A DNA stretch of 64,000 nt from a bacterium (GCA_030433255.1 JAUIMI010000001.1:311362-375361); one strand, 5' to 3'; positions 3,171-18,899 are shown, counted from the stretch's first letter. Numbers and translations are program-made. Notes: generated by a model from the sequence alone, not told the origin.

Positions 3171-3347
3171 TTATAGGCTAAACAATCAGTAGTGTTGGGA
3201 TATAGAATTCAACACCTTGTTTTTTGAATTAAGGTACTCGTACCCGTTTGGAGTTAGCTGATTAAGCTTTATTGTCTAACGTATTAAATATACTTGGTAA
3301 GCTTCTTCATTAGATCGTTTCATAACAGAACATTTAAAAAAGGAAAG

Positions 3348-3545: not shown

Positions 3546-3679
3546 TGATCAGCGTAAGTATTACGTATTCGGACACTACCTTGAATTCTGCGAATACTAG
3601 TTTAAGTAATATAGGCTCTGTTTCAAAATGTTAACTTTCAATTTATATTAAAAAACACCATTTGGTGTTTTTTAAGTAA

Positions 3680-6600
3680 CTAATTCAATGATGTAACTCC
3701 ATCTAATGCCACTCCAGAAAGAGCATTTAAATGCCCTGCGGTTTCAGGTCCAATAATTCCATCAAGGATTAAGTTATTAGCTTGTTGGTATGAACGAATA
3801 CCTGCGTAGGTAAGCCCTCCGTAAATACCATCAAATGGTCCAATGGAATGGCCAAGTGAAGCAATACATTCTTGTGCTTGACGTATGTCATTTCCTGTCA
3901 TTCCTCGTTTGATTAATCGTCTGTAATTGATGAAACATTTGGCATCTTCTACAACAGGAGTTGATTCTACTTCTATTACTTCTTTCCCACAACTATTGTT
4001 AATCAATGATCTTGTAATTGGTCCAACATATCCGTCCTGAGTTGTACCTAGATATGCTTGCATACGTTTAATAGCTCCGTCAGTAATTGGTCCCAAGATC
4101 CCATCTACTTTCCCTGATGCAAACCCTAATCTATTCATATGTGCTTGAAGAATTTTAACTTCCGTTATGGTTTCATTTTCCCATGATGAGAAGCTTCCGT
4201 TGCGGTCTCCTACTTTCATGTTTTGATTTAGTATTTGAGATGATGGACATTGTTCCCCTTTTCCAAGCTCTTCAGAAACAGGAGTTCCAAAAATTTCTGC
4301 TAACTTTTCTTTTGATACACGCCTTGAACTTCCTTTTGAAGTTGAAGTCGTAGCATCATCATCCGTTAGCGTTACGATATGTGCTTGGTCAGCAACCGCA
4401 TCATACTCATCAGCACTTGCAGCAGCATTGATGCTAGCGGTGATACTTGCGGTGTCGGTTTGCACAAGGTCATCGTCAACACCTGTGACGGTAACCGTTT
4501 GAGGTGTATCCCAGTTTGCTGGTGTAAAGGTCAGTGAGCTTGGTGATACCGTTGCTTCGTTGGTGTCACTTGAACTCAGGTCGATGACAACATCTGAGGT
4601 TGGTTCAGCATCAAGCACAATGGTGTAGCTTGCTGTTCCTGCGTTTTCTGAAGCTGTTGATGTGTTTGATGATTGAGTGAAATCAGCCATATCATCATCA
4701 GTGATGATAATTGAAGCGGTTGCATCTGCTACCCCATCATAGGTATCATCAGAGGCAGCATCATTTACCGAAATCGTAAGTGTAGCTGAGTCATCACGGT
4801 CAAGATCATCGTTAACTGCTGTTACGGTGATGGTTTGGTTGACGTTCCAGTTACCTGTAGTAAAAGTCAGTGAACTTGGCGAGACGGTGGCTTCCCCAGT
4901 GTCACTTGAACTCAGGTCGATGACAACATCAGTAAGTGGCTGTGAACCCAACCGAACATTGAAACTCCCAGTTCCTGCATTTTCAAGAATGGTTAATCCA
5001 GTTGTGGTAATTCCACTTGGGTCGATGATAATAGAAGCGGCATCATCATCCGTTAGCGTTACGATATGTGCTTGGTCAGCAACCGCATCATACTCATCAG
5101 CACTTGCAGCAGCATTGATGCTAGCGGTGATACTTGCGGTGTCGGTTTGCACAAGGTCATCGTCAACACCTGTGACGGTAACCGTTTGAGGTGTATCCCA
5201 GTTTGCTGGTGTAAAGGTCAGTGAGCTTGGTGATACCGTTGCTTCGTTGGTGTCACTTGAACTCAGGTCGATGACAACATCTGAGGTTGGTTCAGCATCA
5301 AGCACAATGGTGTAGCTTGCTGTTCCTGCGTTTTCTGAAGCTGTTGATGTGTTTGATGATTGAGTGAAAGAAGTAACCACATTTACAATACGTGTTACTT
5401 CGATAGCATCATTTCCAGCCGCATCAGCTACATTATATGTGATAGTGTAACTACCAAGAGTGGATGTATCTACTGGATTTACAGTTACAATATTTACTGT
5501 GATATCTCCATCAAGATTATCTGTTGCAGCCGCTCCAGCATCTGAATATGGAGTATTTACAGGGACTGTTACAGGGTCACTCCCTGTAAGTGTTATAACA
5601 GGGGGTGTTGTATCTTGTAACCATAGTCTATTTTGAAAATCACCATTATCCCCATTGACTACGTAAACATCAATTTCCCCATCATTGTTTACGTCCCCAG
5701 TTGTAACCCCAAATGATTCCCCAGTATCTCCTGTAATGTTGTTTTGTGTAAAGTTTCCAGATCCATCATTTTCCCAAATAATATTCTGAAAACCAAAATA
5801 CATTGCAATAAGGATATCCAAATCACCATCACCATCAAAATCAACAATTTCTGAATCTTGAGCAGTACCTCCATAGTCATTAGCGATATTTTGAGAGGCA
5901 AATGTCCCATCATTATTATTTATCCAAAACCGATTTAGATTAACAGGTTGGTCATCATAGTATGAGGTTAGGTATAAATCAATATCATTATCACCATCTA
6001 TGTCACCGACAACTACTGAACGACCTGGGCAACCATTATTTTGATCCGTACATATATCACCAGTTATGTTACCACTTACAAAAGTTCCATCCCCATTTCC
6101 GAGCCATAATTTGTTCTGGTTATTATACGCTGCTCGTGAAGCGTAAATGTCTAGGTTTCCATCGTTATTAAAATCAGCCATTGCTACATCATCAGCAATA
6201 CCATCTCCTGAAATACTTCCATCAATGAAATTCCCAGTCCCATCATTTATCCAAAGAACATTGGTTCCGCCACTAAATGCTCCTACATAAATATCTAAAT
6301 CGCCATCATTATCAACATCGCCAATAACAACCGAACTAGACCGAGAAGTTGTTGAGTCAGCTGGAATATCGGCATTTGTAAATGTACCATCTCCATTTCC
6401 AAGCCATAGTTTATTTTTACTAAAACTATTGGTGACATAGATATCCAAATTCCCATCACCGTTAAGGTCTGCCATAGCTGCATCGGTAGTGTTTCCTTGG
6501 TCATCACCTAGAATATCAGAATTGGTAAAAGTTCCATCCCTATTTCCGATCCATAATTTATTTTGCTCTAATCGAGCACCTACATATATGTCTAAGTTTC

Positions 6601-6742
6601 CATCGTTGTTAACGTCACCCATTATGGCTGAACGTGAATTTCCTAAATCATTAGGAATATCTTGTGAAACGAATTCGGCATAAGCGCCTTGAGCACTAAA
6701 AGCAAGCGCAAGTAATAAAATAATCTTTGTATAATACTTCAT
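3680..6742 (-). CDS. large secreted FG-GAP/VCBS beta-propeller adhesin-like protein with Ig-like repeats and two C-terminal peptidoglycan-binding domains
   Basis: A signal peptide is present. There are seven or more D-x-N-x-D-G-x-L-D-I-Y-V calcium-binding FG-GAP repeats, a HYR/Ig-like segment, three beta-sandwich repeats of about 110 aa (two identical) and two PG_binding_1-like modules at the C-terminus. Confidence 0.8.
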   Translation of the reverse strand: MKYYTKIILLLALAFSAQGAYAEFVSQDIPNDLGNSRSAIMGDVNNDGNLDIYVGARLEQNKLWIGNRDGTFTNSDILGDDQGNTTDAAMADLNGDGNLDIYVTNSFSKNKLWLGNGDGTFTNADIPADSTTSRSSSVVIGDVDNDGDLDIYVGAFSGGTNVLWINDGTGNFIDGSISGDGIADDVAMADFNNDGNLDIYASRAAYNNQNKLWLGNGDGTFVSGNITGDICTDQNNGCPGRSVVVGDIDGDNDIDLYLTSYYDDQPVNLNRFWINNNDGTFASQNIANDYGGTAQDSEIVDFDGDGDLDILIAMYFGFQNIIWENDGSGNFTQNNITGDTGESFGVTTGDVNNDGEIDVYVVNGDNGDFQNRLWLQDTTPPVITLTGSDPVTVPVNTPYSDAGAAATDNLDGDITVNIVTVNPVDTSTLGSYTITYNVADAAGNDAIEVTRIVNVVTSFTQSSNTSTASENAGTASYTIVLDAEPTSDVVIDLSSSDTNEATVSPSSLTFTPANWDTPQTVTVTGVDDDLVQTDTASITASINAAASADEYDAVADQAHIVTLTDDDAASIIIDPSGITTTGLTILENAGTGSFNVRLGSQPLTDVVIDLSSSDTGEATVSPSSLTFTTGNWNVNQTITVTAVNDDLDRDDSATLTISVNDAASDDTYDGVADATASIIITDDDMADFTQSSNTSTASENAGTASYTIVLDAEPTSDVVIDLSSSDTNEATVSPSSLTFTPANWDTPQTVTVTGVDDDLVQTDTASITASINAAASADEYDAVADQAHIVTLTDDDATTSTSKGSSRRVSKEKLAEIFGTPVSEELGKGEQCPSSQILNQNMKVGDRNGSFSSWENETITEVKILQAHMNRLGFASGKVDGILGPITDGAIKRMQAYLGTTQDGYVGPITRSLINNSCGKEVIEVESTPVVEDAKCFINYRRLIKRGMTGNDIRQAQECIASLGHSIGPFDGIYGGLTYAGIRSYQQANNLILDGIIGPETAGHLNALSGVALDGVTSLN
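4354..4682. repeat. intragenic direct repeat, copy 1 (about 329 bp, identical to 5041..5369)
   Basis: Read by eye, the nucleotide sequence is identical to copy 2, offset by 687 bp (229 codons), inside the 3680..6742 CDS. Confidence 0.85.
5041..5369. repeat. intragenic direct repeat, copy 2 (about 329 bp, identical to 4354..4682)
   Basis: Same evidence as copy 1. The domain copy between the two (about 4700..5040) is diverged. Confidence 0.85.
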
Positions 6743-6857
6743 ATCAATTTAAATATTAACCTAAGTCATTATTATTTACAATATCCTTGAACGAAAATTT
6801 GACTTGCAAAAATTGCTTATTGAAGTATAGTTGTATTAAATTTTAAACAAGTAAATT

Positions 6858-7352
6858 ATGAAACAATTATTTCTTCTAGTATTGGTATTTTTCTCTATTA
6901 CAGTGCAAGCTCAAGTTGGGCTAGGTACCAACACCCCAGACCCTAATTCTATATTGGATTTAACAAGTAACAATAAGGGATTGCTTATCCCTCGAATGCT
7001 AACTAGTGATCGTTTAGCTATTACATCACCACCAAACGGGTTAATCGTATTTGATGTTGATACCAATGGCATATGCTATTTTTCCTCTACTTTGGATTGG
7101 GTTTGCATTGATGCAGAGTCTACTAATGGATGGGTGCAATCTGTTGATGGCACAACACCAGCAAGTGATGCAACTCAATCCATTGAGCGTTCTGGTGACC
7201 TAGAAATTTCAACCACAAGTTTTCAGATTAGTATCTCTGAGTCAGGTGGGATTACACTCAAAAACACCTCAAGTAATTCAAGTATAGAAATACAAAGCGA
7301 CGGTAAGATAAAGATGACCGGAGCAAGTGGAAGTTTTGTATACATTAATTAG
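6858..7352 (+). CDS. secreted hypothetical protein
   Basis: A signal peptide (MKQLFLLVLVFFSITVQAQ) is present. A conserved N-terminal block VGLGTNTPDPNSILDL..GLLIPRM..DRLAI..P.NGLIVFDVDTN resembles a motif I recall from Bacteroidetes surface proteins, but the family identity is uncertain. Confidence 0.5.
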   Translation: MKQLFLLVLVFFSITVQAQVGLGTNTPDPNSILDLTSNNKGLLIPRMLTSDRLAITSPPNGLIVFDVDTNGICYFSSTLDWVCIDAESTNGWVQSVDGTTPASDATQSIERSGDLEISTTSFQISISESGGITLKNTSSNSSIEIQSDGKIKMTGASGSFVYIN

Positions 7353-7450
7353 TTGAAAATTGAATTTAGAAAAGCCCTTACACTCGTATAGGCTTTTTTT
7401 TAAATTACTTAAAGGACATTTAATACAAGGATTACAATATCTAAAGGACA

Positions 7451-7490
7451 TTTAAAAACAGGCTATTTTTAAGTAGCCTGTTTGTTATTT
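7451..7490. terminator. bidirectional terminator between the convergent genes 6858..7352 and 7493..8863
   Basis: The hairpin ACAGGCTA-tttttaag-TAGCCTGT is flanked by an A-run and a T-rich run. A second, weaker hairpin lies at about 7371..7402. Confidence 0.5.
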
Positions 7491-7492
7491 AG

Positions 7493-8863
7493 TTAACGTA
7501 TAATTAATTTTTTAGATATTATCTTGTTGCTTGTAAGTATACTCACATGATACATTCCAGATGATAGATTAGGTAATTGTAAGCTTGTATTATCCGCCAA
7601 TAAACTACTATCATAATAAGCCATGGTTTTACCCAATGGATTATAGATAGTCACCTCTTGTATTGTAATAGCTTCGGGTAAGATAAAATGTATCTCTGTT
7701 GTTGCAGGATTTGGATATAAACGAATACTGTCAGTGGAGTCCTCAATATCTGAAACTCCCAAAGTAGCTTCATTTATGACATACATCTCAGTGATTAATT
7801 CATTTTCATATTGACCAACACCAATGTTGCCAGAAGTTAAGAGAACATTTGAAACTATCCCTTGATAAGGCATCTTTACAATAACGGATGAACCATATGC
7901 TCTATCAGCCGGAATAAAATTAGGATCTAGCGTCAAATTTGAGCCAGTATCGATGTAAATTCCTGCACTGGGATTCGGTTGTGATTGAAAACCAGCTACA
8001 TAATAGTCAAAACTTCCATCACTATTAAAATCATGTTCAAGAATATTAGCCTGTATATGATTAGGAATTACACTCGAACTTAACTCCGTAACACCATCTG
8101 AATCCACAAAATAAATATCAGATGTGTTGTTGTTAGTTTTAAGAATATACCTTCCAAATTCATTAAACACCAAAATGGTATCTGAACCCAATAAGCCTCT
8201 TGTACCTCTCAAGACATTATACGTGCCATTGTTGTTGCTAACCATAACATAACAATTATTATTCACATCATTGTTTGGTGTTGAGTTAAGAGAACTGGTA
8301 TCATCTACTATTTTTGTAAAGAATCCATTGGAATTTTCATAAATAATAGAACGTAAACGAAAACTTGCATCACGACCACTTGTTCGTAAATCAAGATCGC
8401 CATCATTATCAACATCGAAAAAATCAGCTATAACATCGTAAAGTCCAATGAGGTTTTGGGATACATTGTACCCTCCATTCCCGTCATCCATACGAATTTC
8501 TGCAAAAGGATTTGAATTGGGCAAATTAAGATTTGGCGTACCGATAATAAGAATATCTGGACCATACAGCCCATCAAGATCAGCCTGAAGTATTTTTCCA
8601 TACCCCACATCTGGCAATGTTCCCGTCTGAGCAAACATGTCATTTGTGTCATCAAAGTCGTAAATGCGAGTCCCAAGAATAGAATTATCCTCTATTCCAT
8701 ATCCGATTAATCGATTATGTAAACCATCTCCGTTAGTGTCGATAGGTAGAAATTCTCCTTTGACAGGAACGAGATTGTGCTGAATAGTTCCATAATTTAG
8801 TTGAGCACACACATTGAAAATAGGTGCAATTGCCATCATCAAAAACAAAATAATTTTTTTCAT
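7493..8863 (-). CDS. secreted FG-GAP-like repeat protein with a T9SS (Por) C-terminal sorting domain
   Basis: A signal peptide is present. Calcium-binding D-x-D-x-D-G repeats occur (FDVDNDGDLDL). The C-terminal 75 aa (LYPNPATTEIHF ... GMYHVSILTSNKIISKKLIIR) matches the type IX secretion CTD pattern. Confidence 0.7.
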   Translation of the reverse strand: MKKIILFLMMAIAPIFNVCAQLNYGTIQHNLVPVKGEFLPIDTNGDGLHNRLIGYGIEDNSILGTRIYDFDDTNDMFAQTGTLPDVGYGKILQADLDGLYGPDILIIGTPNLNLPNSNPFAEIRMDDGNGGYNVSQNLIGLYDVIADFFDVDNDGDLDLRTSGRDASFRLRSIIYENSNGFFTKIVDDTSSLNSTPNNDVNNNCYVMVSNNNGTYNVLRGTRGLLGSDTILVFNEFGRYILKTNNNTSDIYFVDSDGVTELSSSVIPNHIQANILEHDFNSDGSFDYYVAGFQSQPNPSAGIYIDTGSNLTLDPNFIPADRAYGSSVIVKMPYQGIVSNVLLTSGNIGVGQYENELITEMYVINEATLGVSDIEDSTDSIRLYPNPATTEIHFILPEAITIQEVTIYNPLGKTMAYYDSSLLADNTSLQLPNLSSGMYHVSILTSNKIISKKLIIR

Positions 8864-9037
8864 CTTTTTAAATTTTAAGGTTTATTTGATTTGATATTAC
8901 CATGAACTCTTTCTTTTTACTATAAACTGAAAAAGCCTAACACTATATGATTATATATTTACAGGATAACTGTATATTCCCTTGCTTTGTTCAAACACTT
9001 GTTTTAGTTTAGCTTTCATCCATAAAACAAAGAATAC

Positions 9038-10978
9038 ATGAAAAAGCGAGTTGGCGTGTGGATACGAGTTTCCACAAAATTACAGCAGAATTCAGATAGC
9101 CCTGAACATCATTTGCAAAAAGCAAAAATGTACGCAGAGCTAAAAGATTGGGATATTGTAGAAGAGTACCACTTAGAAGCTGTTAGCGGCAAAAGCGTGA
9201 TGGAACACCATGAAGCCCAGCGTATGATGCGAGATATTCAAAGTGGTCATATTGAAGGTTTGATCTTCTCGAAGATTGCCCGCTTTGCTCGTAACGTAAA
9301 AGAACTTTTGGAATTCTCAAAACACTTTCAAAAGTATAAGGGAGATATGATTTCCTTGAGTGAATCTATAGATACCAGTACACCTTCTGGTCGCTTTTTC
9401 TTCACCATGATTTCTGCTATGGGTCAGTGGGAACGTGAAAATATTGTTGAACGTATTAAATCATCTGTAGAAGTCAGAGCCAAAATGGGAAAAATAATGG
9501 GTGGTATTCCATTTGGGTATAAACGAGTAGGTAAAGATGATATGGCACTTGATGAACACGAAGCTCCAATTCGTAAAATGATGTTTGACTTGTTTTTGGA
9601 GCATGAACGGCATGCAACCGTAGCCAACATTCTTAACGAAAAAGGATATCGCACCAAACGAAAAAGTAAATTCACCGGTACTACGGTTAAACGACTATTA
9701 CAAGACCCAACTGCAAAAGGTATTAGACGTTCTCATTGCACTAAGATAGATGAAAATGGAAAAACCGTAATGAGGGATAAGTCGGAATGGTACATCCACG
9801 AAGCACCACGAATCGTATCAGACGAAGTATGGGACACCGTAAATGATATTATCCGTAAACAGGAAAAAGAAAAGGTACAACCATTAAATAAAAAGGTGCA
9901 TTTGTTTACAAGCTATTTATTTTGTGAATGCGGTGGCGGTATGTATGTGCCATCGTCAAACCCAAAATACACTTGTAAGAAGTGTAAACGCAAAATCCAT
10001 GTCGAAGATATTGAAGCGATCTTTAAAGAACAGCTCACCGAGTTCATCATTTCAGAAGAAGAAGTAAAACGTTACTTTAATGGCACACACACCATCATCA
10101 GAGAAAAGCAACAAGAGATTGAAAATGTGAAATCAGAAATACTAAAACTTGAAGATAAGATTGAAAAGCTATTTGAACTTCACGAAAAAGGGCAAATTGA
10201 GACTGATAGATTTAAAGATTTCTACGATAAACCAAACAACCAAGTGCAACAATTAAAACTCAGAATCCCACGAATTGAAGGCGAAATCTATGCCTTGAAA
10301 GACCAATTTAAATCAAGTGGATATATTATTGAAGAAGCTCGTTCGTTATATGAAAACTGGCATAAACTCACCAAAAGGCAAAAACGTAACATCATAGAAA
10401 TCATTACCGAAAAGATAGTGGTATCAGAGCAGGAAGTGAACATCACACTTAACTATATTCTTCCAAAGACACCATCTTTGAAAACGACTGCAAATGGTAC
10501 TCATGGACTATACTCAATGAGTACCATTTGCAGTTTTAAACTGAAACCAAAGTTACGCAAAATACCTAAAGCAAAACCCTTTACCCACTCACTTGGAGAG
10601 TACATCCGACACGAAAGGCTAAAAAAGCACATTTCACAAGAAGCATTAGCAAAACAGTTTGGTGTTAATGGAGTTGCTTTATCTATGTGGGAACTAAAAC
10701 GTAAGCCAGTACATCCAAAACGTTTTCAATCGGTGATTGATTTTCTTGATTACGTTCCTAAAAAGTCATCGAAGTTTGATAAGCTAGGAACACGCACTCA
10801 ATTATGGCGATTACAAAATGAGGTGAGCCTCCAAGAGTTTTCAGAATTGGTACATGTTCCCATAGAAGAAATTACACGAATAGAAACAGCTAGATATTGT
10901 AAAATTGACAGTAAGGTATCTGAAATCATCAACGCATTCATCAAACACTCTATTTCTTCCCACGAAGTGCTTTCATAA
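9038..10978 (+). CDS. large serine recombinase (resolvase/invertase N-terminal domain, recombinase domain and zinc ribbon) with a C-terminal HTH extension
   Basis: The N-terminal VGVWIRVSTKLQ carries the serine nucleophile context. A Cys4 zinc ribbon (CECGGG ... CKKCKRK) and coiled-coil segments follow. One or two XRE-like HTH motifs sit at the C-terminus (ISQEALAKQFGVNGVALSMWE). Confidence 0.85.
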   Translation: MKKRVGVWIRVSTKLQQNSDSPEHHLQKAKMYAELKDWDIVEEYHLEAVSGKSVMEHHEAQRMMRDIQSGHIEGLIFSKIARFARNVKELLEFSKHFQKYKGDMISLSESIDTSTPSGRFFFTMISAMGQWERENIVERIKSSVEVRAKMGKIMGGIPFGYKRVGKDDMALDEHEAPIRKMMFDLFLEHERHATVANILNEKGYRTKRKSKFTGTTVKRLLQDPTAKGIRRSHCTKIDENGKTVMRDKSEWYIHEAPRIVSDEVWDTVNDIIRKQEKEKVQPLNKKVHLFTSYLFCECGGGMYVPSSNPKYTCKKCKRKIHVEDIEAIFKEQLTEFIISEEEVKRYFNGTHTIIREKQQEIENVKSEILKLEDKIEKLFELHEKGQIETDRFKDFYDKPNNQVQQLKLRIPRIEGEIYALKDQFKSSGYIIEEARSLYENWHKLTKRQKRNIIEIITEKIVVSEQEVNITLNYILPKTPSLKTTANGTHGLYSMSTICSFKLKPKLRKIPKAKPFTHSLGEYIRHERLKKHISQEALAKQFGVNGVALSMWELKRKPVHPKRFQSVIDFLDYVPKKSSKFDKLGTRTQLWRLQNEVSLQEFSELVHVPIEEITRIETARYCKIDSKVSEIINAFIKHSISSHEVLS

Positions 10979-13900
10979 TAATATTAGTTATCGAAGCCTG
11001 CTTATTGGTGTCATTGTCTGTTTTGTAATCCACGTTTACACGGTAGCCACGTACACGCTTTACTTTGGTTTTTGGTTGAATTAAGGCATCAAGATACAGC
11101 AGTAATTCTTCAGATTTGAAGAAGTGGATTTTTAAGTGTTGTTTTTTAGAAATATTCTTTAAGGCTTGTTCCTTGATATTCTTAAGATGCTTTTCGTCCT
11201 CTGAAATCATATATACCAAAGAGTAGTTATCATCCAAGCACTTTTGAATATTTTGTACTTCATAATCTACTCTATTAGTTACTGAAATTTCAATGGCAAT
11301 ACGAATATCATCTTTTAACAGCGATACATCAACTTTGCCACCATTTAATGTTGAATCTTCAAGTGTTGCCTTAAACCCTCGCTGGAGAGCCATAGAACGA
11401 ATGTAATTTTGAATTGAACGATGCTGACGGACAATCTCCTGTTCTTCGGCTTGTTGTAAGTATTTTTCTTTACGAGCTTCTAAATCATCAGTCTTTTCTA
11501 AATTTTCAGTTTTTGGAGATGGTTTTGTTTCAGTAATGGGCTTTTCAACTTCACTTTTCTTATCTTCAACAATTACGGGTTCAACAGATTTTTCAATTTT
11601 GGGTTCTGTTGTTTTAGTTTTGAGTTTAGTCTTTTGGGGTGTTTGCTTAGGAAGCAAGGAAGCTAACAACTCATCAAGTTCTGCTTTAGATTTGCTGTAG
11701 CTTTTTCTTGTATGAGCAACAATACTATCTCTATTTACTTCGGCATTAGTTTCAGCTATAGACAATGGAAAGGTTGAAATATTAAAATCATCACTTGAAG
11801 AACCTACGCGCATAATGGCTTGTCCGATACCGAGACTCTGTAAATCATCTTGCTCAAAATATGAAAAACCAGACTCCAATCGTTTCGCATCGCTATCGCC
11901 TAGACGAAAACAAATCCGTGTTTTTGGATTTGATAAAACAGAGTTCAACAATTTTGCATCTTCAATTTGAGCCAATTCTTGATGAGCAATGGTAATACCT
12001 AAACCATATTTTCTAGCACCACTTAATATACGTTCAATACTTGGTGTGATGAAATTTTGGAACTCATCTAGGTATAACATAAAAGGTTTACGGCTATCCT
12101 TACCTTTAGATTGCCTTGCCAATGCCGATTGATTAAATTTTGCCAAGAACAATGAGCCTAATAAATAGGAATTCTGTTCTCCAATAAGGCCTTGCGATAA
12201 TTTCAGTAAAACAATTTTGTTGGTATTAAGGCAATTTGCTACATCAACACCTTTGTTTTGAGCTAACATATAGCGCACCAATTTTGGACGTAAAAATGTA
12301 TCTATACGAGTAAGTAGTGGTGCAATACCTTTTCGTACCAAAGGATATTCATTATTCCAATAGTAATGTAACGAAGGGTCGTTGACCGTTTTTAAGTATT
12401 GAACTCTATAAGGTTCTTCAAGTAGAAAACGCTTTAATTCAATAAGCGTTCCACCTTGAGTGCTCTCTAACATGGTATTTACAGCGTTTTGCAATACCGC
12501 AGTCATATTATCTCCCCAAGCAGTGGCATGACGTTTAAATGCCGAAACTAAATCTGATGAGAGTACAATTTTTTCAGCATCGGTATGCGCTTCTAATAGA
12601 TTGAATCCAATAGGGAAGTCAGCATCGGAAGGGTCTATTAAAACTACATCATTAATCCTGTTTTCTGGAATACGCTCTAAAATATCATCAATGATGTCGC
12701 CATGTGGATCGAACATAGCACAACCCATTCCATTTTCAATATCGGCAAGCATCATATTTGCCAGTAGAGTACTTTTACCAACGCCTGTGGCTCCTATTAC
12801 GTGTGTATGGGACAAACGTGTTTCATAGCTTAATTGAACAGGAATATCTTCTTGATTATGGGTATTGACTCCAATTAGGATGCCTTGATTGTCCTTTTGG
12901 TGTATACGTTTGGTTTTACCAACTTGCCATTGTAGTTTTTTAGAAACCACCGTTTTATTGGGATAGTGCAAAAAGGTATTCAGTTCCTTGGAATTCAATA
13001 CAAAGCCCAATCGGTTACTGAGGCGATGATGTAGATTGTATTTATGGAAATCATAATCATACCCTTCATTGGATAAAGGGATGAGTTTGTTATGCTGAGA
13101 GGTTGAAACTGCCGAAATACTTCGTGCTAACTCTTGTGCCAGATACTGACTCCTGTAATTGTCCTTGCCTTGAGTAGCTATACGCATCACCACTGAAAAT
13201 AGTGGATGTGCTATTTTTTCTTTGGCACACTGTGGCATTTCAGGAGCATCCGAAAAAAAAGAACCGCCAGCACCATCATTTACCGAATACATTGTATCCT
13301 TTGCTAAAGGAGAACTAATACCTTTAAACAGAATTTGAAAAACAGCAACATCATCATCCTGCAAAGCTTCCATAGTTGCGATGACTGAAGTTAATGGGTC
13401 TATGTTAAAAGAATCAGACGTAACTATGCTTCGCATATATTCACTATTAAGCCCAAAGTCTGCAATAGCGATATCATTTTTGTTTGAAAATCCAAAATCA
13501 TCAACTTCAATAGTTTTAATTATAACCATTGGAAAGTATGCCGATAATTGCGATTTCAATCTGCCTCTATCCTGTTTACTACATACCATTTGAATTTGGA
13601 TAGTATCTGAATTACCAATAATTTCAAAGGACAGTAAATGTTCTGTAAAGGATAGTAGATTGAGAAGTTCGATATTCCTGCTTGGATTGATTTCAGTCCC
13701 ATACGGAAAGGAAATTGAGAGACCAACAAGTTGAGGCTTTTCTGAAACTTCAAGAAAACGAGGTTTAACCTCTATTAAATCTTCTTCTGGTTCTTCTTCT
13801 TTAGGAGGAGCAAGTAATTTGGTTACTTGTTTGAATAATGAAGGTGCTCTACCATCATCTTGTATTGAAGGTCGGTTTTGGCTTACATGCTGAAAGGGAA

Positions 13901-14009
13901 CATAGGGAACCTCAATATCAATAGGAGTATCGAAATTGTAATACCCACGAAATCGATACTCCCAATTATAGAAATTAAGGGTTGCTTGTTCACTTCTTGT
14001 TAAACCCAT
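10950..14009 (-). CDS. FtsK/HerA/TrwB-superfamily P-loop ATPase (DUF87 or type IV coupling-protein-like) with an unknown 400-aa N-terminal domain, a K/E/P-rich linker and a C-terminal possible nuclease-like domain
   Basis: Walker A GATGVGKST is present, then FDPHGD, Walker B LYLDEFQNF and an AHQ motif. No TM helices are evident. The C-terminal roughly 120 aa show a D...E-I-S pattern weakly reminiscent of PD-(D/E)xK folds. Confidence 0.65.
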   Translation of the reverse strand: MGLTRSEQATLNFYNWEYRFRGYYNFDTPIDIEVPYVPFQHVSQNRPSIQDDGRAPSLFKQVTKLLAPPKEEEPEEDLIEVKPRFLEVSEKPQLVGLSISFPYGTEINPSRNIELLNLLSFTEHLLSFEIIGNSDTIQIQMVCSKQDRGRLKSQLSAYFPMVIIKTIEVDDFGFSNKNDIAIADFGLNSEYMRSIVTSDSFNIDPLTSVIATMEALQDDDVAVFQILFKGISSPLAKDTMYSVNDGAGGSFFSDAPEMPQCAKEKIAHPLFSVVMRIATQGKDNYRSQYLAQELARSISAVSTSQHNKLIPLSNEGYDYDFHKYNLHHRLSNRLGFVLNSKELNTFLHYPNKTVVSKKLQWQVGKTKRIHQKDNQGILIGVNTHNQEDIPVQLSYETRLSHTHVIGATGVGKSTLLANMMLADIENGMGCAMFDPHGDIIDDILERIPENRINDVVLIDPSDADFPIGFNLLEAHTDAEKIVLSSDLVSAFKRHATAWGDNMTAVLQNAVNTMLESTQGGTLIELKRFLLEEPYRVQYLKTVNDPSLHYYWNNEYPLVRKGIAPLLTRIDTFLRPKLVRYMLAQNKGVDVANCLNTNKIVLLKLSQGLIGEQNSYLLGSLFLAKFNQSALARQSKGKDSRKPFMLYLDEFQNFITPSIERILSGARKYGLGITIAHQELAQIEDAKLLNSVLSNPKTRICFRLGDSDAKRLESGFSYFEQDDLQSLGIGQAIMRVGSSSDDFNISTFPLSIAETNAEVNRDSIVAHTRKSYSKSKAELDELLASLLPKQTPQKTKLKTKTTEPKIEKSVEPVIVEDKKSEVEKPITETKPSPKTENLEKTDDLEARKEKYLQQAEEQEIVRQHRSIQNYIRSMALQRGFKATLEDSTLNGGKVDVSLLKDDIRIAIEISVTNRVDYEVQNIQKCLDDNYSLVYMISEDEKHLKNIKEQALKNISKKQHLKIHFFKSEELLLYLDALIQPKTKVKRVRGYRVNVDYKTDNDTNKQASITNIIMKALRGKK

Positions 14010-14014
14010 GTCAT

Positions 14015-14599
14015 CTATCTGATAAATACATCATTTAACATAGGCTTACGCTCTGCCTCACTGATAGAGCGGATTCCTTTATCGTTGGTAATGTCATCAA
14101 TGACTTTTAACACCGAAGATTGAGCGTAGCTCATAAACATACTGGCAGTATCTATCCTGTAATAGGTTACTGGATACAATTTTCTTGCAAGCCAACCACC
14201 TATAAATGGAATTTTAGCAACCAATATCTTGCCAATGGAATCTTTATACAATAACCACCAAGACACGAAAAAGCCATGACCAAACTTGGCTCCACAAATA
14301 TCATATTGGTAATCTTTCCATATAGCTCGTAAATAGATGCGAGAATGAGACATCGCTCCTCCTTCTTTAATGAATTTTTCTTTGATATTGATTTTTGTAA
14401 TGCCGTGAGATTCCAGTTCGGTTTTTAATAAGGCATAAAACTCTTTAGGTGAGTATTCAAAGTTATCAATAAGGGTACTCCACCGTGAGTGATAGTTTTT
14501 TCTGGTTTTACTGAAAATAAATCTTAAAACTAGAAAAGCAACAATTCCAGCTAGGACATACATCCCATATTTTGTTAGATAAAAAGTGAATTCATTCAT
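14015..14599 (-). CDS. hypothetical membrane-anchored protein
   Basis: It has a single N-terminal TM helix. It lies 5 bp upstream of the ATPase gene and 26 bp downstream of the AlaX-like gene on the same strand. Confidence 0.45.
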   Translation of the reverse strand: MNEFTFYLTKYGMYVLAGIVAFLVLRFIFSKTRKNYHSRWSTLIDNFEYSPKEFYALLKTELESHGITKINIKEKFIKEGGAMSHSRIYLRAIWKDYQYDICGAKFGHGFFVSWWLLYKDSIGKILVAKIPFIGGWLARKLYPVTYYRIDTASMFMSYAQSSVLKVIDDITNDKGIRSISEAERKPMLNDVFIR

Positions 14600-14625
14600 A
14601 GGGTTTCAAGTTTTAGTTGTTAGAC

Positions 14626-15534
14626 TTATATTAATTGTGTCTTTATTGATAAGGTTTTTTCCTCTTCATTATAGAAGCAGTCTACAGTAACTTTAGGTAA
14701 TTGGGACAAAGAGCTAACATGAGTTCCTCCACAAGGGATAGTAACAAATCTATCATTTATTTTTACTTTAAAATTTCGTTTAGCCCCTAATTGAATATTA
14801 TCTCCGAACATACTTACTTTAGAAGATTTATTGATATCTATAAGTTTGTTTAAACTACTCGACAACTCAATAGAAAACTTTTTAAAATCTAAGCTTTTGA
14901 ATTTAACTAAGTCAAACCCTTTCTTTGATAAACTTTTACCAATACGATATACATCAGTAGCATAATAAGTGTAGATTTTTGATTTCTGTATTGCTAAGGC
15001 ATCAAAATTTGGATTATTAAGATCATCTTTAAAATCCACCTCTTTTTTCCAAAATGAAGCTAGTTCTTCATTAAGAATTATTGACATCAAATGAACGGTA
15101 GTGTGTGTTTTAGAGAGATTTTCTCTAAATTTTTCGTCTACATATAACTCGCAATCTAAATCAATTAATGAGTTTTCATTTAATGAGTTTAAATCGTCAA
15201 TAATAAAATGCCCTATCATGGCAATATATATACCTTCTTGAAGCCCTTTATAAAAAGCACTTTTACTTTTGGGAAATACATTCTTTCTAGTATTTATGTC
15301 TATAATTATAATACGAGAGTCTTCAACCTTATATGTTTTTCCTTGAATGACTATTTTTCCTTTATCTCCTGGTTGATCTCCACCTAGATAATCTTCAGGG
15401 TGAAATGGACTCATGTCTGTACAAACATATAGACCCTCAGGAAAAGAAAAGACACCTTTTATTTTAGCTTTAGAATAGGTTGAATTTTCATAATATAATG
15501 CTTGGCTAGTTGTTGTTCTATTTGAGATTTTCAT
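14626..15534 (-). CDS. AlaX-M-type alanyl-tRNA synthetase-like trans-editing domain protein
   Basis: The N-domain signature is ALYYENS ... FSFPEGLYVCTDMSPFHPEDYLGGDQPGDKG, of the LYY ... FYP.GGGQP.D.G type. The editing-site zinc motifs HTTVHLM (HxxxH) and CGGTHV (CxxxH) are separated by about 115 aa, as in AlaRS/AlaX editing domains. Confidence 0.7.
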   Translation of the reverse strand: MKISNRTTTSQALYYENSTYSKAKIKGVFSFPEGLYVCTDMSPFHPEDYLGGDQPGDKGKIVIQGKTYKVEDSRIIIIDINTRKNVFPKSKSAFYKGLQEGIYIAMIGHFIIDDLNSLNENSLIDLDCELYVDEKFRENLSKTHTTVHLMSIILNEELASFWKKEVDFKDDLNNPNFDALAIQKSKIYTYYATDVYRIGKSLSKKGFDLVKFKSLDFKKFSIELSSSLNKLIDINKSSKVSMFGDNIQLGAKRNFKVKINDRFVTIPCGGTHVSSLSQLPKVTVDCFYNEEEKTLSIKTQLI

Positions 15535-16553
15535 AAGTTAATTATATAAGGATTAGTACTTTTTACAAACTGCATCTTCACTTTTGACCTAAGAGTCACT
15601 ATTCTTTGAAGCCAACGATCGTGTCCATCAAATTTTGCGGGGAACAATGATCTACCATGGACTGCTTTATCATTATCTATAATTAATAAATCGCCTGGTT
15701 TAAGAGCTATCTTTATAGCGCTTTCATGTATAAGTAATTTTAATTCTTTAAATGCTGTTTCTGCTTTTTTTGTTAAGAACTTGGTAGTATATAATGGATC
15801 ATACCTCAAGGTAAGTGTCTTTTTAAATTCTAATATTGACACCTTAACTTCTTTTTGAACACCATGGGCTTCGTCTGAAGAAATAATAAAATTGGGCATT
15901 AGTAATTGTTCAATTGTTTGTGGTTTTAACTTATAAAAGTCTATTTTAGAAATTAACGTATAAGCTTCTGGTGTTCCTCTTAAACATAATAATAGTATAT
16001 GATTGCACCTAAGGTTGTGAAATGCATCTTCTGTATGCCAATCTAAATAGACTCTCCCCGTTCCTAATTGTTTATTTTGGTCTTTTATTTTGGGAAAAAG
16101 ATTTTGTATTACAAGTCCTTTTCTTTGCGAAAAATAGCCATAAGGATATCCTATTAAATTAGCTATAGCAATAAGAATGATTTCACTGTAAGATGTCATT
16201 TTTAAATCTAAATTTCCAGTTGGCCCAAGATGTTGGTCTAGCAATAAATTTTCAATTAAAAAAGCACCTATAGTATTAGATTTATTTGCAAACTCAACAA
16301 TAGAATCTTCTAATTCATTAGGAAGCACATCTGAAACATCATCACTCGCCCTAGAAATATTGAAGTAATTTTTTTGATTAAACTTTTTTTCCGCTTTGAT
16401 GGAAACTTTATTTTTTATGAACTTATTTTCATCAGATGACAGTCTATAAAAAGATTCAAATTTTGTTAGCTGAATTTTTTCATGAATTTTTCTTAAGTCT
16501 TTCACTATATCTCTTTTTTTAGTAAAATTAGATTTATAACTATTTGTAACCAA
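15531..16553 (-). CDS. Fe(II)/2-oxoglutarate-dependent oxygenase of the TauD/TfdA/clavaminate-synthase-like family (putative amino-acid hydroxylase)
   Basis: WHTEDAFH (an HxE/D facial-triad motif) is followed by LLLCLR. The C-terminal GDLLIIDNDKAVHGRS ... RWLQR supplies the second His and an Arg, as in TauD/CAS-like enzymes. A 4-bp ATGA overlap links it to the downstream AlaX-like gene. Confidence 0.6.
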   Translation of the reverse strand: MVTNSYKSNFTKKRDIVKDLRKIHEKIQLTKFESFYRLSSDENKFIKNKVSIKAEKKFNQKNYFNISRASDDVSDVLPNELEDSIVEFANKSNTIGAFLIENLLLDQHLGPTGNLDLKMTSYSEIILIAIANLIGYPYGYFSQRKGLVIQNLFPKIKDQNKQLGTGRVYLDWHTEDAFHNLRCNHILLLCLRGTPEAYTLISKIDFYKLKPQTIEQLLMPNFIISSDEAHGVQKEVKVSILEFKKTLTLRYDPLYTTKFLTKKAETAFKELKLLIHESAIKIALKPGDLLIIDNDKAVHGRSLFPAKFDGHDRWLQRIVTLRSKVKMQFVKSTNPYIINL

Positions 16554-16630
16554 TACGGATTTTCCCTTAATTTTTAATGCTGATTATCTGAAAGACAATA
16601 ATTTCAAGTAGATTTACTTCATTATTCGAA

Positions 16631-17320
16631 ATGATGAACATCAGATTATTAATATTCGTAATCTTTCTTGCTCTTGGAATTGGATGCCATGCGGGCTCTT
16701 ATGCCTTCAATAATGAAAAACTTTTAGAACTATTATCGCAGGCTGAAAAACTGGAACAGAACAAGGAGTATTCAACCGCATTGAATGTATATAATGAGGC
16801 TCTGAAAATTGCATCCAAAGAAGAGCGTATTGAAGACGCCAGTTACATTTACAATAAAATAGGATTAGTCTATTACAGACAAAAGCAATACGAAACAGCA
16901 AAATCCAATTTTAAGACCAGCATCCTAAAATCCAATATTTCTAATAGTGCTGCAGATTCTTATTTCAATCTCTCGCTGATTTACAGAAAACAAAACTCAA
17001 AGGATAGCCTTCTATGGTCATTGAATAGGTCTTTGGAAATTTATGGTGGTTTGGAAGATAGCAACAGTAAATTTTCAACCTATTCCAAAGCTGGAATTCT
17101 CTATAAACAGCTGGGTATGTATGACAAAGCCATTGAATATTTGCTTTTGGCTTATGACGGATTAGATAATAAAGAAAATGAGTCCCAAAAAACTTCGGTT
17201 TGCTACACCATTGGTGAGACGCAACGCCTTTTGGGAAATTTAGACATTGCTAAAACTTATCTAAAAGAAAGCCTTCAGATTAGAAATAGACTTAATGATT
17301 CTCTTAAAACGTCTTCATAG
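16631..17320 (+). CDS. TPR-repeat lipoprotein
   Basis: A lipobox (LALGIGC) is present. Several 34-aa TPR-like repeats with an A/Y/L pattern follow. Confidence 0.6.
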   Translation: MMNIRLLIFVIFLALGIGCHAGSYAFNNEKLLELLSQAEKLEQNKEYSTALNVYNEALKIASKEERIEDASYIYNKIGLVYYRQKQYETAKSNFKTSILKSNISNSAADSYFNLSLIYRKQNSKDSLLWSLNRSLEIYGGLEDSNSKFSTYSKAGILYKQLGMYDKAIEYLLLAYDGLDNKENESQKTSVCYTIGETQRLLGNLDIAKTYLKESLQIRNRLNDSLKTSS

Positions 17321-17622
17321 TTAGCAGTGTTTTCGGCTATGGCTAATGCTTGACCACTATGAACTATATCATTATCCTTTACGAGAAGATTGCTAATTTC
17401 ACCACTCATTCTTGCATATTCCTTTTGAGGTGGAATTGTAGTAGTTATTATTACCTGTGACTGAATAATATCAGGATACTTAATATACCATGTTGCTAAA
17501 AACAATAAAAATATAACTACAAAAATTACCGTTATCCCCCATTTTAAAAAAACATTTGGTTGCTTTTCTAAAATTTCTCTAATTTGCTCACTGTGATTAT
17601 CGATTTCGTCAATTTTCATCAT
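17275..17622 (-). pseudogene. N-terminal fragment of an HlyD-family bacteriocin or peptide secretion accessory protein
   Basis: A TM helix is followed by IIQSQVIITTT-PPQKEYARMSGEISNLLVKDNDIVHSGQALA, typical of the first 110 aa of LcnD/ComB-type HlyD proteins. The ORF ends after 115 aa and overlaps the convergent TPR gene. Confidence 0.5.
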
Positions 17623-17876
17623 TAACTTCCTAATTCTAATTGATCTTTAACTAACTTATAATAGACTCCTTTATTATTTACTAACTTTTGATGATCACCT
17701 TCCTCAATTATTTCTCCTTTTTCTAAACAGCTCCCTAAATAATCTTTAATCTTAGCCCATGTACCATCACACCCATGACAATCAGACCAGTCACCTCCTT
17801 GAACTTTTTCAAGTACATCACTAGTGTTTACGTTTTCTGCTTTTGCTTTAAAAGCTTCAAGACTTAATCTCTTCAT
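17622..17876 (-). CDS. double-glycine-leader peptide-like ORF fused in frame to the C-terminal tail of a bacteriocin-type ABC exporter (remnant)
   Basis: The N-terminus MKRLSLEAFKAKAENVNTSDVLEKVQGG resembles a GG-type leader. The Cys-rich DWSDCHGCDGTWAKIKDYLGSC follows. The last 34 aa (LEKGEIIEEGDHQKLVNNKGVYYKLVKDQLELGS) match the conserved C-terminus of C39-peptidase ABC exporters. Confidence 0.45.
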   Translation of the reverse strand: MKRLSLEAFKAKAENVNTSDVLEKVQGGDWSDCHGCDGTWAKIKDYLGSCLEKGEIIEEGDHQKLVNNKGVYYKLVKDQLELGS

Positions 17877-17962
17877 AATAAAAAGTTTTATATAGTTTAC
17901 TTGCCTACTCTTTTAGCTTTTCGGCTCCCGCTATTATTATTTTCTAAATAAACGAAAAATAT

Positions 17963-17979
17963 TGGTCATTATTGACCAA
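17963..17979. promoter_or_regulatory. palindromic operator-like site TTGGTCA-tta-TTGACCAA overlapping a putative -35 element
   Basis: This is a near-perfect inverted repeat in the divergent intergenic region between the GG-leader ORF and the XRE regulator gene. TTGACC is followed about 15-17 nt later by TATATT. Confidence 0.4.
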
Positions 17980-18044
17980 ATAATTAAAAATTTATATTGT
18001 TAACTGTTTTTTGAGTTTCTCATAGAGTTTTTTCAGGTAATAAC

Positions 18045-18350
18045 ATGTTATGTTTTATCTTGCAATTGCTATTAATCATGTTTCCTATGAACTCATTACC
18101 CTTTGAGATTCTCTTTGAAGTTCTCGGCAATCGTATTCGTGATCTTCGACAATCAAAAAAGCTTTCACAAATTGAAGTAGCAGCAAGATGTGGACTGGAC
18201 GTTTCTAACTATAATAAAATTGAATTTAACAAAAGGCCACCATCACTACGTACGCTATTTAAAATTGCCATTGCTCTAGATGAACCTATCTCTAATTTCT
18301 TTAATGATGAAGTGTTTCTCTCATTTATCGAAGAACATGTGAAAGCTTAA
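18045..18350 (+). CDS. XRE-family helix-turn-helix transcriptional regulator
   Basis: HTH_3 signature LSQIEVAARCGLDVSNYNKIE is present. The likely true start is an internal Met at about 18087 (MNSLPFEIL). Confidence 0.7.
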   Translation: MLCFILQLLLIMFPMNSLPFEILFEVLGNRIRDLRQSKKLSQIEVAARCGLDVSNYNKIEFNKRPPSLRTLFKIAIALDEPISNFFNDEVFLSFIEEHVKA

Positions 18351-18572
18351 TAAAAATGTTGTTTTTAATAAATCAGTCTATCAAGTCTAAAGTTGTAATC
18401 TCATTAAATAGCTTTTAAATATGCTTGCTTTTTGGTTCTAGCAGTATTGTGTAGCAATGGCATTAAGTAAGTATTAGGCTAATGTCCACAGATATACTTT
18501 AAATTCTATTTTTTTAATTACGAAACCAAAAAAAAGCGTTAGCTTTTTAAAACAGCCAAACCAAAGAGATAG

Positions 18573-18899
18573 CTATAACCAGCTATCTCTTTGTAATTGC
18601 TTTCGTTCTTGTTCCTGTTTTATTTGTTCTATTCGGATATGGTCTGGAATGCGTTCATTTGCGTTGTACTTTGGTAAAGAAATTTCTTTTGTAGAACGCA
18701 TTTTTTGCGTTTCGAATTGTGAATGAGATATCCAGTCCCGTCGCTTAACCTTTCCAAACTCATCTCGCCATCCCAAAAGATTCCTCACAATCTTAAGATA
18801 CACACGCACCGCAGATCCACTCATACTTCCAATATGCTTATCAAAAAAAGCATTAGGCACTGGAGTCGTATTATTCAGTCGCATGAGCTTCAAAATCAA
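18573..18899 (-). CDS. truncated phage/plasmid replisome-organiser-like protein (N-terminal winged-helix domain only)
   Basis: VPNAFFDKHIGSMSGSAVRVYLKIVRNLLGW resembles Phage_rep_org_N/DnaD-like N-domains. It is only 108 aa. A 12-bp stem hairpin (AAAGAGATAGCT ... AGCTATCTCTTT) overlaps its 3' end. Confidence 0.35.
   Translation of the reverse strand: MILKLMRLNNTTPVPNAFFDKHIGSMSGSAVRVYLKIVRNLLGWRDEFGKVKRRDWISHSQFETQKMRSTKEISLPKYNANERIPDHIRIEQIKQEQERKQLQRDSWL

Follow-up and report, generated by a model that had tools for sequence, protein, structure and literature searches.

In a bacterial DNA stretch of 64,000 nucleotides (nt; GCA_030433255.1, JAUIMI010000001.1:311362-375361; termed the window in the following) we analyzed two overlapping genes whose most plausible role, held with moderate confidence, is that of a minimal cassette: one product would make a non-canonical amino acid and the other would protect the producer from it. 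The first gene encodes a clavaminate-synthase-like Fe(II)/2-oxoglutarate amino-acid oxygenase, the second a divergent protein of the AlaX fold with an N-terminal barrel and a zinc editing domain, a putative aminoacyl-tRNA deacylase. The pair fills the slot for variable cargo in an integrative element of the serine-recombinase type that is found mainly in Flavobacteriaceae. By analogy with recently characterized biosynthetic loci it belongs to a described kind of system, in which a producer enzyme is accompanied by its cognate tRNA deacylase.

The overlapping genes and their active sites

Both genes lie on the minus strand, as do all features of their products given below. The oxygenase open reading frame (ORF; 15531-16553, 340 amino acids (aa)) starts with TTG, its first in-frame ATG not occurring before residue 118, and is followed by the AlaX-like ORF (14626-15534, 302 aa). 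The two share the tetranucleotide ATGA at 15534-15531, which holds the TGA stop codon of the oxygenase and the ATG start codon (15534-15532) of the AlaX-like gene; the junction reads ...AAC TTA TGA. Positions, lengths and overlap had been proposed in an initial annotation of this DNA: the ORF calls on the minus strand agree with the first two, and direct reading of the sequence with the third. By this overlap the two genes are translationally coupled.

The AlaX-like protein displays the motifs L13-Y-Y, F44-H-P, G51-GDQPGDKG, H144-TTV-H148 and C268-GGT-H272, so that every element of the AlaX-M signature quoted in the initial annotation was recovered. The N-domain motif F44-HPEDYLGGDQPGDKG-59 (15358-15405) aligns to FYPTGGGQPHDRG of AlaX-M, the first half of the zinc site (H144-TTV-H148, 15091-15105) to HTGLH and the second half (C268-GGT-H272, 14719-14733) to IPCGGTH. 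Residues H45, D53, Q54, D57, H109, H144, H148, C268, G269, G270 and H272 are invariant in 62 homologues; the zinc and N-domain motifs are therefore not chance matches. In a smaller alignment (n = 17) the N-domain residues H45, D53, Q54 and D57, further H109, the four zinc ligands H144, H148, C268 and H272 and the family-specific block around D194 (see below) are likewise invariant. A profile of the family matched AlaX-M of Pyrococcus horikoshii (PDB 2e1b) with E = 2.4e-14, the match spanning the N-domain motif, HxxxH and IPCGGTH. We take the 216-aa protein of this entry to be AlaX-M, and PH0574, which the initial annotation had named beside it, presumably is AlaX-S. The AlphaFold2 model of the window protein has a pLDDT of 96.3 and a pTM of 0.92, and its top 20 Foldseek matches in the PDB were solely editing regions of AlaRS, AlaX-M and AlaX-S; the target-normalized TM-score to AlaX-M (2e1b and 9iuw) was 0.79-0.83. 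The fold and the zinc site of the protein are thereby established.

The label 'AlaX-M-type' given initially holds for architecture and fold, but not for the equivalog family. With the NCBIfam model AlaXM (NF040865) the protein scored 32.9 bits against a cut-off of 300 bits and only residues 11-73 were matched; Pfam tRNA_SAD reached 16.4 bits, below its gathering cut-off of 24 bits. Compared to AlaX-M of P. horikoshii (2e1b) and P. furiosus (9iuw), the window protein has the same barrel with GGxQPxDxG and the same HxxxH/CxxxH zinc editing domain, and C-Ala is absent in both. However, sequence identity is only 18-19%, and the window protein is ~85 residues longer through insertions. One of them corresponds to positions 156-199 of the family profile, for which 2e1b has no counterpart, and bears the family-specific motif D194-VYRIGKSLSKKG-F207 (14914-14955): D194, Y196, R197, G199, K200, S201 and G206 are invariant in the 62 sequences, giving D194-x-Y-R-x-G-K-S. 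Furthermore, AlaX-M is encoded among housekeeping genes whereas the window gene is carried by a mobile element. A homologue search with the window protein yielded ~90 proteins of 260-350 aa, all of them lacking a precomputed Pfam domain; those with a name are called 'metal-dependent hydrolase', 'alanyl-tRNA editing protein' or 'alanyl-tRNA synthetase'; a genome scan found at least 545 loci encoding members of the family. The window protein is not a housekeeping AlaX but belongs to a separate family of ~290 aa.

The oxygenase contains W172-HTED (with H173 and E175), GD..DN..AVH299GR and R313-WLQ-R317. These are the elements by which it had first been recognized, and the iron triad and the arginines align with structures of the family. 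The codons of H173-T-E175, the HxE of the 2-His-1-Glu triad, lie at 16029-16037 and align to WHTED of OrfP, of PDB 6daw and of VioC (H168/E170). The distal iron ligand H299 together with R313-WLQ-R317, the 2-oxoglutarate- and carboxylate-binding arginines, is encoded at 15603-15659 and aligns to H316 and RWLKR (R330, R334) of VioC. HxE is conserved in all AlaX-linked oxygenases described below, and the H299 and R313-WLQ-R317 element, including both arginines, is kept among them. Residues T199, R313 and R317 correspond to Thr174, Arg309 and Arg313 of CmnC, the two arginines of which bind 2-oxoglutarate and the substrate carboxylate (PMC9513391). The protein very probably is an active amino-acid hydroxylase, as judged by these residues, and we hold both folds of the pair and their active sites to be assigned with high confidence.

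The best database matches of the oxygenase point to enzymes acting on arginine or enduracididine. Pfam TauD (PF02668) was matched with 32.4 bits, above the cut-off of 27 bits. Of the NCBIfam models, GntD (enduracididine beta-hydroxylase; 1.9e-53), VioC (1.7e-39) and the clavaminate synthase model CS1 (2.7e-30) were matched below their equivalog cut-offs, GntD with 181.9 of 345 bits and VioC with 135.8 of 418.6 bits. In the PDB the order of matches was OrfP, 6daw, AsnO, VioC, CmnC, lysine 3-hydroxylase and clavaminate synthase (CAS), with E-values from 6.5e-30 to 1e-16 (OrfP 4m23, 6.5e-30; 6daw, 7.7e-29; VioC, 2e-22); 6daw is, we assume, the arginine desaturase NapI. The best matches GntD, OrfP and VioC are arginine or enduracididine enzymes, and we assign the oxygenase by sequence to this OrfP/VioC/GntD (arginine-type) subgroup. 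At the level of single residues, Q143 corresponds to VioC Q137 and D252 to VioC D268. Three positions separate VioC and CmnC from OrfP (PMC9513391): the window enzyme carries Q162 and G164 at the positions of VioC L156 and S158, as does OrfP with Gln142 and Gly144, and Leu at the third. Characterized hydroxylases of the OrfP/VioC/CmnC/GntD/MppO type thus are the closest sequence matches of the window enzyme and have the same HxE...H triad, 2-oxoglutarate-binding Thr and Arg and RWLxR element. In contrast to them, the window enzyme is only ~30% identical to any and falls under every equivalog cut-off, its lid loop is shorter, and it has Leu in place of VioC D270 or OrfP Tyr257. The characterized enzymes also belong to non-ribosomal peptide synthetase or alkaloid pathways, and neither PMC13149037 nor PMC9513391 describes an AlaX-like partner for them.

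Recurrence of the pair and published precedent

We scanned species-representative genomes and metagenomes with the family alignments and obtained 160 loci (80 from genomes, 80 from metagenomes), the ORFs of which were searched with the window oxygenase; linkage was defined as a distance of up to ~1.5 kb from the AlaX-like gene. A clavaminate-synthase-like oxygenase was linked in 9 of the 80 genome loci and 6 of the 80 metagenome loci, distributed over Flavobacteriaceae, Hyphomicrobiales, a gammaproteobacterial metagenome-assembled genome (MAG), Chlamydiales, Streptomyces, Microbispora (two species), Streptosporangium and Sphaerisporangium as well as several unbinned metagenome contigs. All-against-all clustering of neighbours found the oxygenase to be the sole neighbour family common to several phyla, other conserved neighbours reflecting lineage-specific synteny. 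The only close relative of the window pair resides in a marine Flavobacteriaceae MAG (locus L001), with 51% identity for the AlaX-like protein and 47% for the oxygenase. The gene order there is the same as in the window (oxygenase, AlaX-like gene, 194-aa protein, ~1000-aa ATPase, large serine recombinase), and the pair likewise overlaps by 4 nt (7024-8004/8001-8906). The functional linkage is real: the same overlapping pair occurs in a second Flavobacteriaceae element and the adjacency in Alpha- and Gammaproteobacteria, Chlamydiota and Actinomycetota. Profiling of the AlaX-like clade against oxygenase neighbours, which the initial annotation had suggested, gave a divided result: the pairing recurs in 15 further loci, but most members of the family lack an oxygenase.

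A word-indexed homologue search with the oxygenase returned 10 proteins, too few for a phylogeny, and for this reason the oxygenases from the AlaX-anchored loci were compared instead. They fall into two subtypes: VioC/OrfP/GntD-like in the window, L001, L042, L136 and L148, and CAS/AsnO/lysine-hydroxylase-like in L039, L079, the actinomycete loci, L108 and L163. The oxygenase-linked AlaX-like proteins occupy at least two separate regions of a neighbour-joining tree, which is rough and has no support values. Because of these two subtypes and two tree regions the pairing looks modular and was probably assembled more than once. Several of the loci contain further genes: an EamA transporter between oxygenase and AlaX-like gene in L042, L136 and L148, a carrier-family transporter at the same place in L079, and an ATP-grasp ligase and MFS transporter downstream of the pair in L039. 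One of the Microbispora loci (L064) encodes EamA, oxygenase, AlaX-like protein, a lysine N6-monooxygenase and a MetRS-like protein. Such companions are hallmarks of small amino-acid-derived biosynthetic clusters with export.

Some loci depart from the simple pair. In a Hyphomicrobiales MAG (L002/L014) the AlaX-like gene is intact, but its oxygenase neighbour consists of two overlapping ORFs of 238 and 150 aa (6883-7990 in L002), probably a frameshifted pseudogene or a sequencing error. In the actinomycete loci L064 (4027-5940), L053, L046 and L049 and in the metagenome contig L108 (945-2726) the oxygenase frame is continuous with an N-terminal GIFT/DUF4350-like domain of ~300 residues; this fusion is likely to be real in L108 and might be an artefact of ORF calling in the high-GC loci. 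The domain in the Fuz-type loci (see below) and L108 is homologous to one that is fused to TIR in L025. In L025 (5959-8841), L004 (5790-8912), L094, L113 and L013 the AlaX-like gene adjoins a radical SAM enzyme in place of the oxygenase, and the third partner is either GIFT/DUF4350-TIR or a protein of 370 aa that weakly matches CAP12/Pycsar-type TIR; the composition of this trio suggests a defence-system flavour. Stable same-strand neighbours also occur directly upstream of oxygenase-free AlaX-like genes, namely an Nramp metal transporter in Aeromonas (L032, L070 and others) and GcpE (IspG) in Microbacterium (L044, L088 and others).

The principle of pairing a producer with self-protection was published in April 2026 (Millar et al., Nat Chem 2026, PMC13149037). 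According to this work, stand-alone AlaX-family proteins of biosynthetic gene clusters act as tRNA deacylases with specificity for the non-canonical amino acid that the host makes, and those beside Fe(II)/2-oxoglutarate-dependent amino-acid beta-hydroxylases guard the producer against mistranslating its own hydroxy-amino acid. BesG hydrolyses beta-ethynylserine-tRNA(Thr), and AlfB clears (2S,3R)-hydroxymethionine, the product of the Fe(II)/2-oxoglutarate dioxygenase AlfC, from tRNA(Met). AlfC and FuzA are beta-hydroxylases of free methionine and free arginine, respectively: the Microbispora fusca enzyme FuzA, encoded in the fuscazine cluster, acts on arginine as a (3R)-beta-hydroxylase, and (3R)-hydroxyarginine was translated in vitro. 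FuzB was proposed, and not assayed, as the cognate deacylase of FuzA (all PMC13149037).

We used Microbispora locus L064 as a proxy for the Fuz cluster in place of M. fusca FuzB, since its gene content matches that of the Fuz cluster. The AlaX-like protein of L064 aligns with the window protein over its full length (~290 residues, 30% identity, E = 5e-40), and in both cases a member of this same AlaX-fold family adjoins a clavaminate-synthase-like amino-acid hydroxylase. The hydroxylases, however, differ in kind: the enzyme at the FuzA position is closest to clavaminate synthase (CAS/AsnO/lysine-hydroxylase-like) and the window enzyme to OrfP. The window also lacks the hydrazine cassette, ATP-grasp ligase, EamA exporter and GIFT-like N-terminal region of the Fuz cluster, its host is not an actinomycete, and its pair is carried on a mobile element. 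The four-gene Alf cluster of Alcaligenes faecalis was likened to the window pair by gene content and described function: there, too, a Fe(II)/2-oxoglutarate dioxygenase makes a beta-hydroxy amino acid and an AlaX-family deacylase clears it from tRNA. In the Alf case this activity was demonstrated in vitro for hydroxymethionine and tRNA(Met); the Alf cluster also contains a regulator and a transporter, neither of which occurs in the window, and the substrate of the window enzyme is more likely a basic amino acid than methionine.

The integrative element and its surroundings

The genes of the oxygenase, the AlaX-like protein, a 194-aa protein (14015-14599) and a 1019-aa P-loop ATPase of the TrwB/VirD4/DUF87 type (10950-14009) follow each other on the minus strand with intergenic distances of -4, 26 and 5 nt. 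A large serine recombinase gene (9038-10978, plus strand) converges on the 194-aa and ATPase genes, and a gene for a TPR protein matching Pfam TPR families (16631-17320, plus strand) diverges upstream of the oxygenase. In a scan of 8800-18600 no terminator separated the AlaX-like gene from the 194-aa and ATPase genes downstream of it. Promoter-like sites in this region were fewer than in shuffled sequence and terminator-like sites equal in number; operon boundaries were inferred from the gene gaps.

The ATPase matches Pfam TrwB_AAD_bind (6e-11), TraG-D_C and DUF87, and its C-terminal region resembles a PD-(D/E)xK nuclease when read by eye. It has more than 960 homologues with up to 76% identity, and those carrying names come almost all from marine Flavobacteriaceae (Xanthomarina, Bizionia, Tenacibaculum, Polaribacter, Flavivirga and others); one close homologue is labelled 'Candidatus Pacebacteria'. 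Because these >960 homologues stand against a single close relative of the pair, we regard the ATPase as backbone of the element and the pair as rare cargo. The 194-aa protein, which has a hydrophobic N-terminal stretch resembling one membrane helix (read by eye), is also a backbone gene and not specific to the pair: an ORF of this size lies directly upstream of the ATPase gene in L001, L173, L175, L176 and L177, beside unrelated cargo, the comparison of homology with the window protein covering L001 alone. The recombinase matches Pfam Resolvase (1e-28), Recombinase (2e-18) and HTH_3 (residues 523-571) and is 41% identical to the L001 recombinase over residues 5-487; homology to the relatives stops near 10500. 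Exactly at this end (residue ~487) lies a 48-bp near-perfect palindrome (10487-10534; arms 92% complementary, no spacer), beyond which the ORF runs on in frame for 159 residues with two HTH domains. The gene is inverted relative to its orientation in L001, L173, L175, L176 and L177, and the palindrome could be a recombination site, an inversion junction or the mark of a gene fusion. A search for att-type direct repeats flanking the element returned short, chance-level repeats only. TPR genes of 435-533 aa adjoin the cargo in L001, L173 and L177. In the literature searched we found no description of this element family (194-aa protein, ATPase, serine recombinase and usually TPR).

The cargo slot was sampled in five relatives (L173, L174, L175, L176 and L177). 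In all five an ORF precedes the ATPase gene directly (194 aa in four, 238 aa in L174), and the serine recombinase follows downstream in four; the L174 contig ends before that position. The slot contents differ: a GAPS4b_N-domain and a NA37-domain protein in L175 (Tenacibaculum), a methyltransferase and RadC in L174 and L176, and a 1314-aa Rhs/YD-repeat toxin with a small downstream ORF and a fragment of a type IX secretion system (T9SS) tail in L177. In L173 (Xanthomarina), the closest backbone relative, two proteins unrelated to the pair occupy the slot; that they are divergent copies of the pair was rejected, as they show no similarity and no Pfam or PADLOC match. When PADLOC was run on the pair and its neighbours, neither pair member was matched and the ATPase alone hit the defence-associated model mad8, and the pair was accordingly rejected as a known defence system.

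Mixed cargo of this sort has a parallel in the Gamma-Mobile-Trio (GMT) islands, an 'armoury' that stockpiles offensive and defensive genes (bioRxiv 10.1101/2023.03.28.534373). The likeness is one of analogy only; the Tenacibaculum relative carries a protein with the N-terminal domain of the anti-phage protein GAPS4b. The elements are not homologous: GMT islands have two tyrosine recombinases and GmtX and occur in Gammaproteobacteria, whereas the window element has a large serine recombinase, the TrwB/DUF87 ATPase and the 194-aa protein, with named relatives almost all in Flavobacteriaceae.

Further features were noticed around the element. Within 17275-17876, the minus strand holds an ORF of 84 aa in which a bacteriocin-type leader (MKRLSLEAF...VLEKVQGG) and a Cys-rich peptide are continuous with the final ~30 residues of an ABC-transporter ATPase. 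Next comes a 115-aa fragment like the N-terminus of an HlyD/EmrA-type adaptor, ending where the TPR gene of the element begins. Together they resemble the remains of a peptide-bacteriocin export locus that has decayed at the element's edge. On the other side, a C-terminal fragment of a tyrosine integrase (2676-3113) is followed by a 1020-aa repeat protein, FG-GAP-like by eye, with internal duplications of ~300 residues, and then, within 2676-8863, by proteins of 164 and 456 aa, the latter ending in a T9SS C-terminal sorting-type sequence (by eye). Positions 4001-8000 have a higher GC content (0.39) and atypical tetranucleotide usage (r = 0.77 compared to 0.96-0.98 elsewhere). The stretch from ~2.6 to 18.5 kb may as a whole have been built up from foreign DNA. 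The element backbone and the T9SS-type tail point to an affinity with Bacteroidota/Flavobacteriaceae. However, within 19400-64000 GlmM passes the archaeal-type equivalog model (508.6 bits, cut-off 439 bits) and PheT as called is without its first ~150 residues, and the label 'Candidatus Pacebacteria' of one close ATPase homologue likewise does not fit this affinity.

Proposed function and alternative explanations

In the mechanism we propose, the oxygenase would hydroxylate a free L-amino acid with Fe(II), 2-oxoglutarate and O2, most likely at C-beta, with arginine or a related basic or guanidino amino acid as the probable candidate. Owing to its likeness to the parent compound, the hydroxy-amino acid would be charged onto tRNA by the cognate aminoacyl-tRNA synthetase; the AlaX-like zinc enzyme would then hydrolyse the hydroxy-aminoacyl-tRNA while sparing correctly charged tRNA, so that mistranslation in the producer is avoided. 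The ATGA overlap would give a fixed proportion of the AlaX-like enzyme to the oxygenase. Clearance of tRNA mischarged with a hydroxylated amino acid had been the second of two mechanisms offered in the initial annotation. We prefer it, since it matches the demonstration for AlfB/AlfC and the proposal for FuzB/FuzA, and by this analogy consider it the best reading and a reasonably likely one. The hydroxy-amino acid may serve as a diffusible antimetabolite or be built into a product whose synthesis is encoded elsewhere in the genome. A weapon with its immunity would fit the cargo slots of the relatives, as these hold an Rhs/YD toxin with a small ORF or a GAPS4b_N protein; that the pair is a horizontally mobile two-gene metabolic toxin-immunity module, with the hydroxy-amino acid as poison, the tRNA deacylase as immunity and no dedicated exporter, is nevertheless a speculative and rather unlikely extension.

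Several observations weigh against the cassette of production and self-protection. The mobile-element-borne form was seen in just two independent elements, and no transporter or regulator was found in the window and L001 cassettes, in contrast to most related loci and the Alf cluster. With 29% identity to the enzyme at the FuzA position of L064, the window oxygenase is not its orthologue. The arginine assignment is weak, because CAS, AsnO and lysine hydroxylase share the Asp that corresponds to VioC D268 and the position of VioC D270 is Leu; an arginine-type substrate, judged from these residues and the matches above, is tentative and slightly more doubtful than convincing. No assay is known for the subfamily that bears the DxYRxGKS insert; the deacylases assayed are BesG and AlfB, and FuzB is a proposal only (PMC13149037). 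Finally, an oxygenase neighbour is missing for most of the AlaX-like family (Microbacteriaceae, Aeromonas, Paracoccaceae and others), and for this reason the basal function of the family may be something other than its function in the oxygenase pairs.

The last two points also speak for an explanation in which the AlaX-like protein does not act on tRNA at all but is a zinc hydrolase or binder for a small-molecule ester or amide of the hydroxy-amino acid, the pair forming a two-step catabolic or biosynthetic module. The scores below the tRNA_SAD and AlaXM cut-offs, the large family-specific insertion with its invariant residues, the many members named just 'metal-dependent hydrolase' and the unrelated contexts of most members, such as those after Nramp in Aeromonas and GcpE in Microbacterium, are all compatible with such a role. 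However, the fold and the full set of zinc ligands are shared with AlaRS editing domains and AlaX, with no other fold class among the significant structural matches, and the N-terminal barrel, which accompanies the editing domain in AlaX-M and AlaRS, is kept together with its GGxQPxDxG motif. To our knowledge, the characterized stand-alone AlaX-fold enzymes are all aminoacyl-tRNA deacylases, which counts further against this explanation, and we judge it improbable.

A second alternative leaves the biochemistry of the pair unchanged and alters its purpose: the pair would primarily be a conflict or addiction module of the element, with the hydroxy-amino acid as a translation poison and not as a biosynthetic intermediate. 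It could stabilize the element, since loss of the element means loss of the deacylase, harm deacylase-free neighbours or act on phage infection. Its position in a variable slot upstream of the conserved 194-aa/ATPase/serine-recombinase backbone argues for this, as do the Rhs/YD toxin, GAPS4b_N protein and methyltransferase with RadC that fill the slot in L177, L175 and in L174 and L176, and the GMT islands provide a precedent for mixed offensive and defensive cargo (10.1101/2023.03.28.534373). Beyond the element, other oxygenase-linked cassettes (L136 and L163) adjoin tyrosine integrases and a Fic gene, and other family members pair with the GIFT-TIR protein and radical SAM enzyme (L025, L004 and L113). 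Against it stand the blank PADLOC result for both proteins and the lack of genes for an exporter or delivery route in the window cassette and in that of L001. Post-segregational killing would moreover have a weak basis in an amino-acid analogue that diffuses freely, and the sample of cargo slots comprises five relatives only. We give little credence to this alternative.

The other mechanism of the initial annotation, in which the oxygenase hydroxylates a tRNA-esterified amino acid and the AlaX-like enzyme releases the product, found no support beyond the tight coupling of a tRNA-related fold to an oxygenase: the characterized relatives (VioC, OrfP, CmnC, GntD, AsnO, lysine hydroxylases, AlfC and FuzA) act on free amino acids or small molecules, no additional domain for binding nucleic acids is present in the oxygenase, and the enzyme keeps the carboxylate-binding R317 (VioC R334, CmnC R313), which contacts a free alpha-carboxylate that would be esterified on tRNA, so that this mechanism is very improbable. 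Least credible of all is a housekeeping Ser/Gly-tRNA(Ala) editor that adjoins an unrelated oxygenase by coincidence, since in spite of zinc motifs shared with housekeeping AlaX the AlaXM score is about one tenth of the cut-off, the gene lies on a mobile element and not amid translation genes, adjacency to an oxygenase recurs in five phyla and the 4-nt overlap is kept at ~50% protein identity.

Compared to the published principle of production with self-protection, three features of the window pair are new: the partner oxygenase of the OrfP/VioC/GntD type, the two-gene form without exporter and regulator, and the location of the pair in the slot for cargo of an integrative element that occurs mainly in Flavobacteriaceae. 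The pair would offer small, easily expressed enzymes for finding a new hydroxy-amino acid together with a matching orthogonal proofreading enzyme. If the proposed function is correct, it would represent a Bacteroidota-type, mobile-element-borne case of a tRNA deacylase marking a locus for a non-canonical amino acid, and its horizontal mobility in a slot otherwise used for toxin and anti-phage genes would hint at hydroxy-amino acids as diffusible antimetabolite weapons in marine communities.

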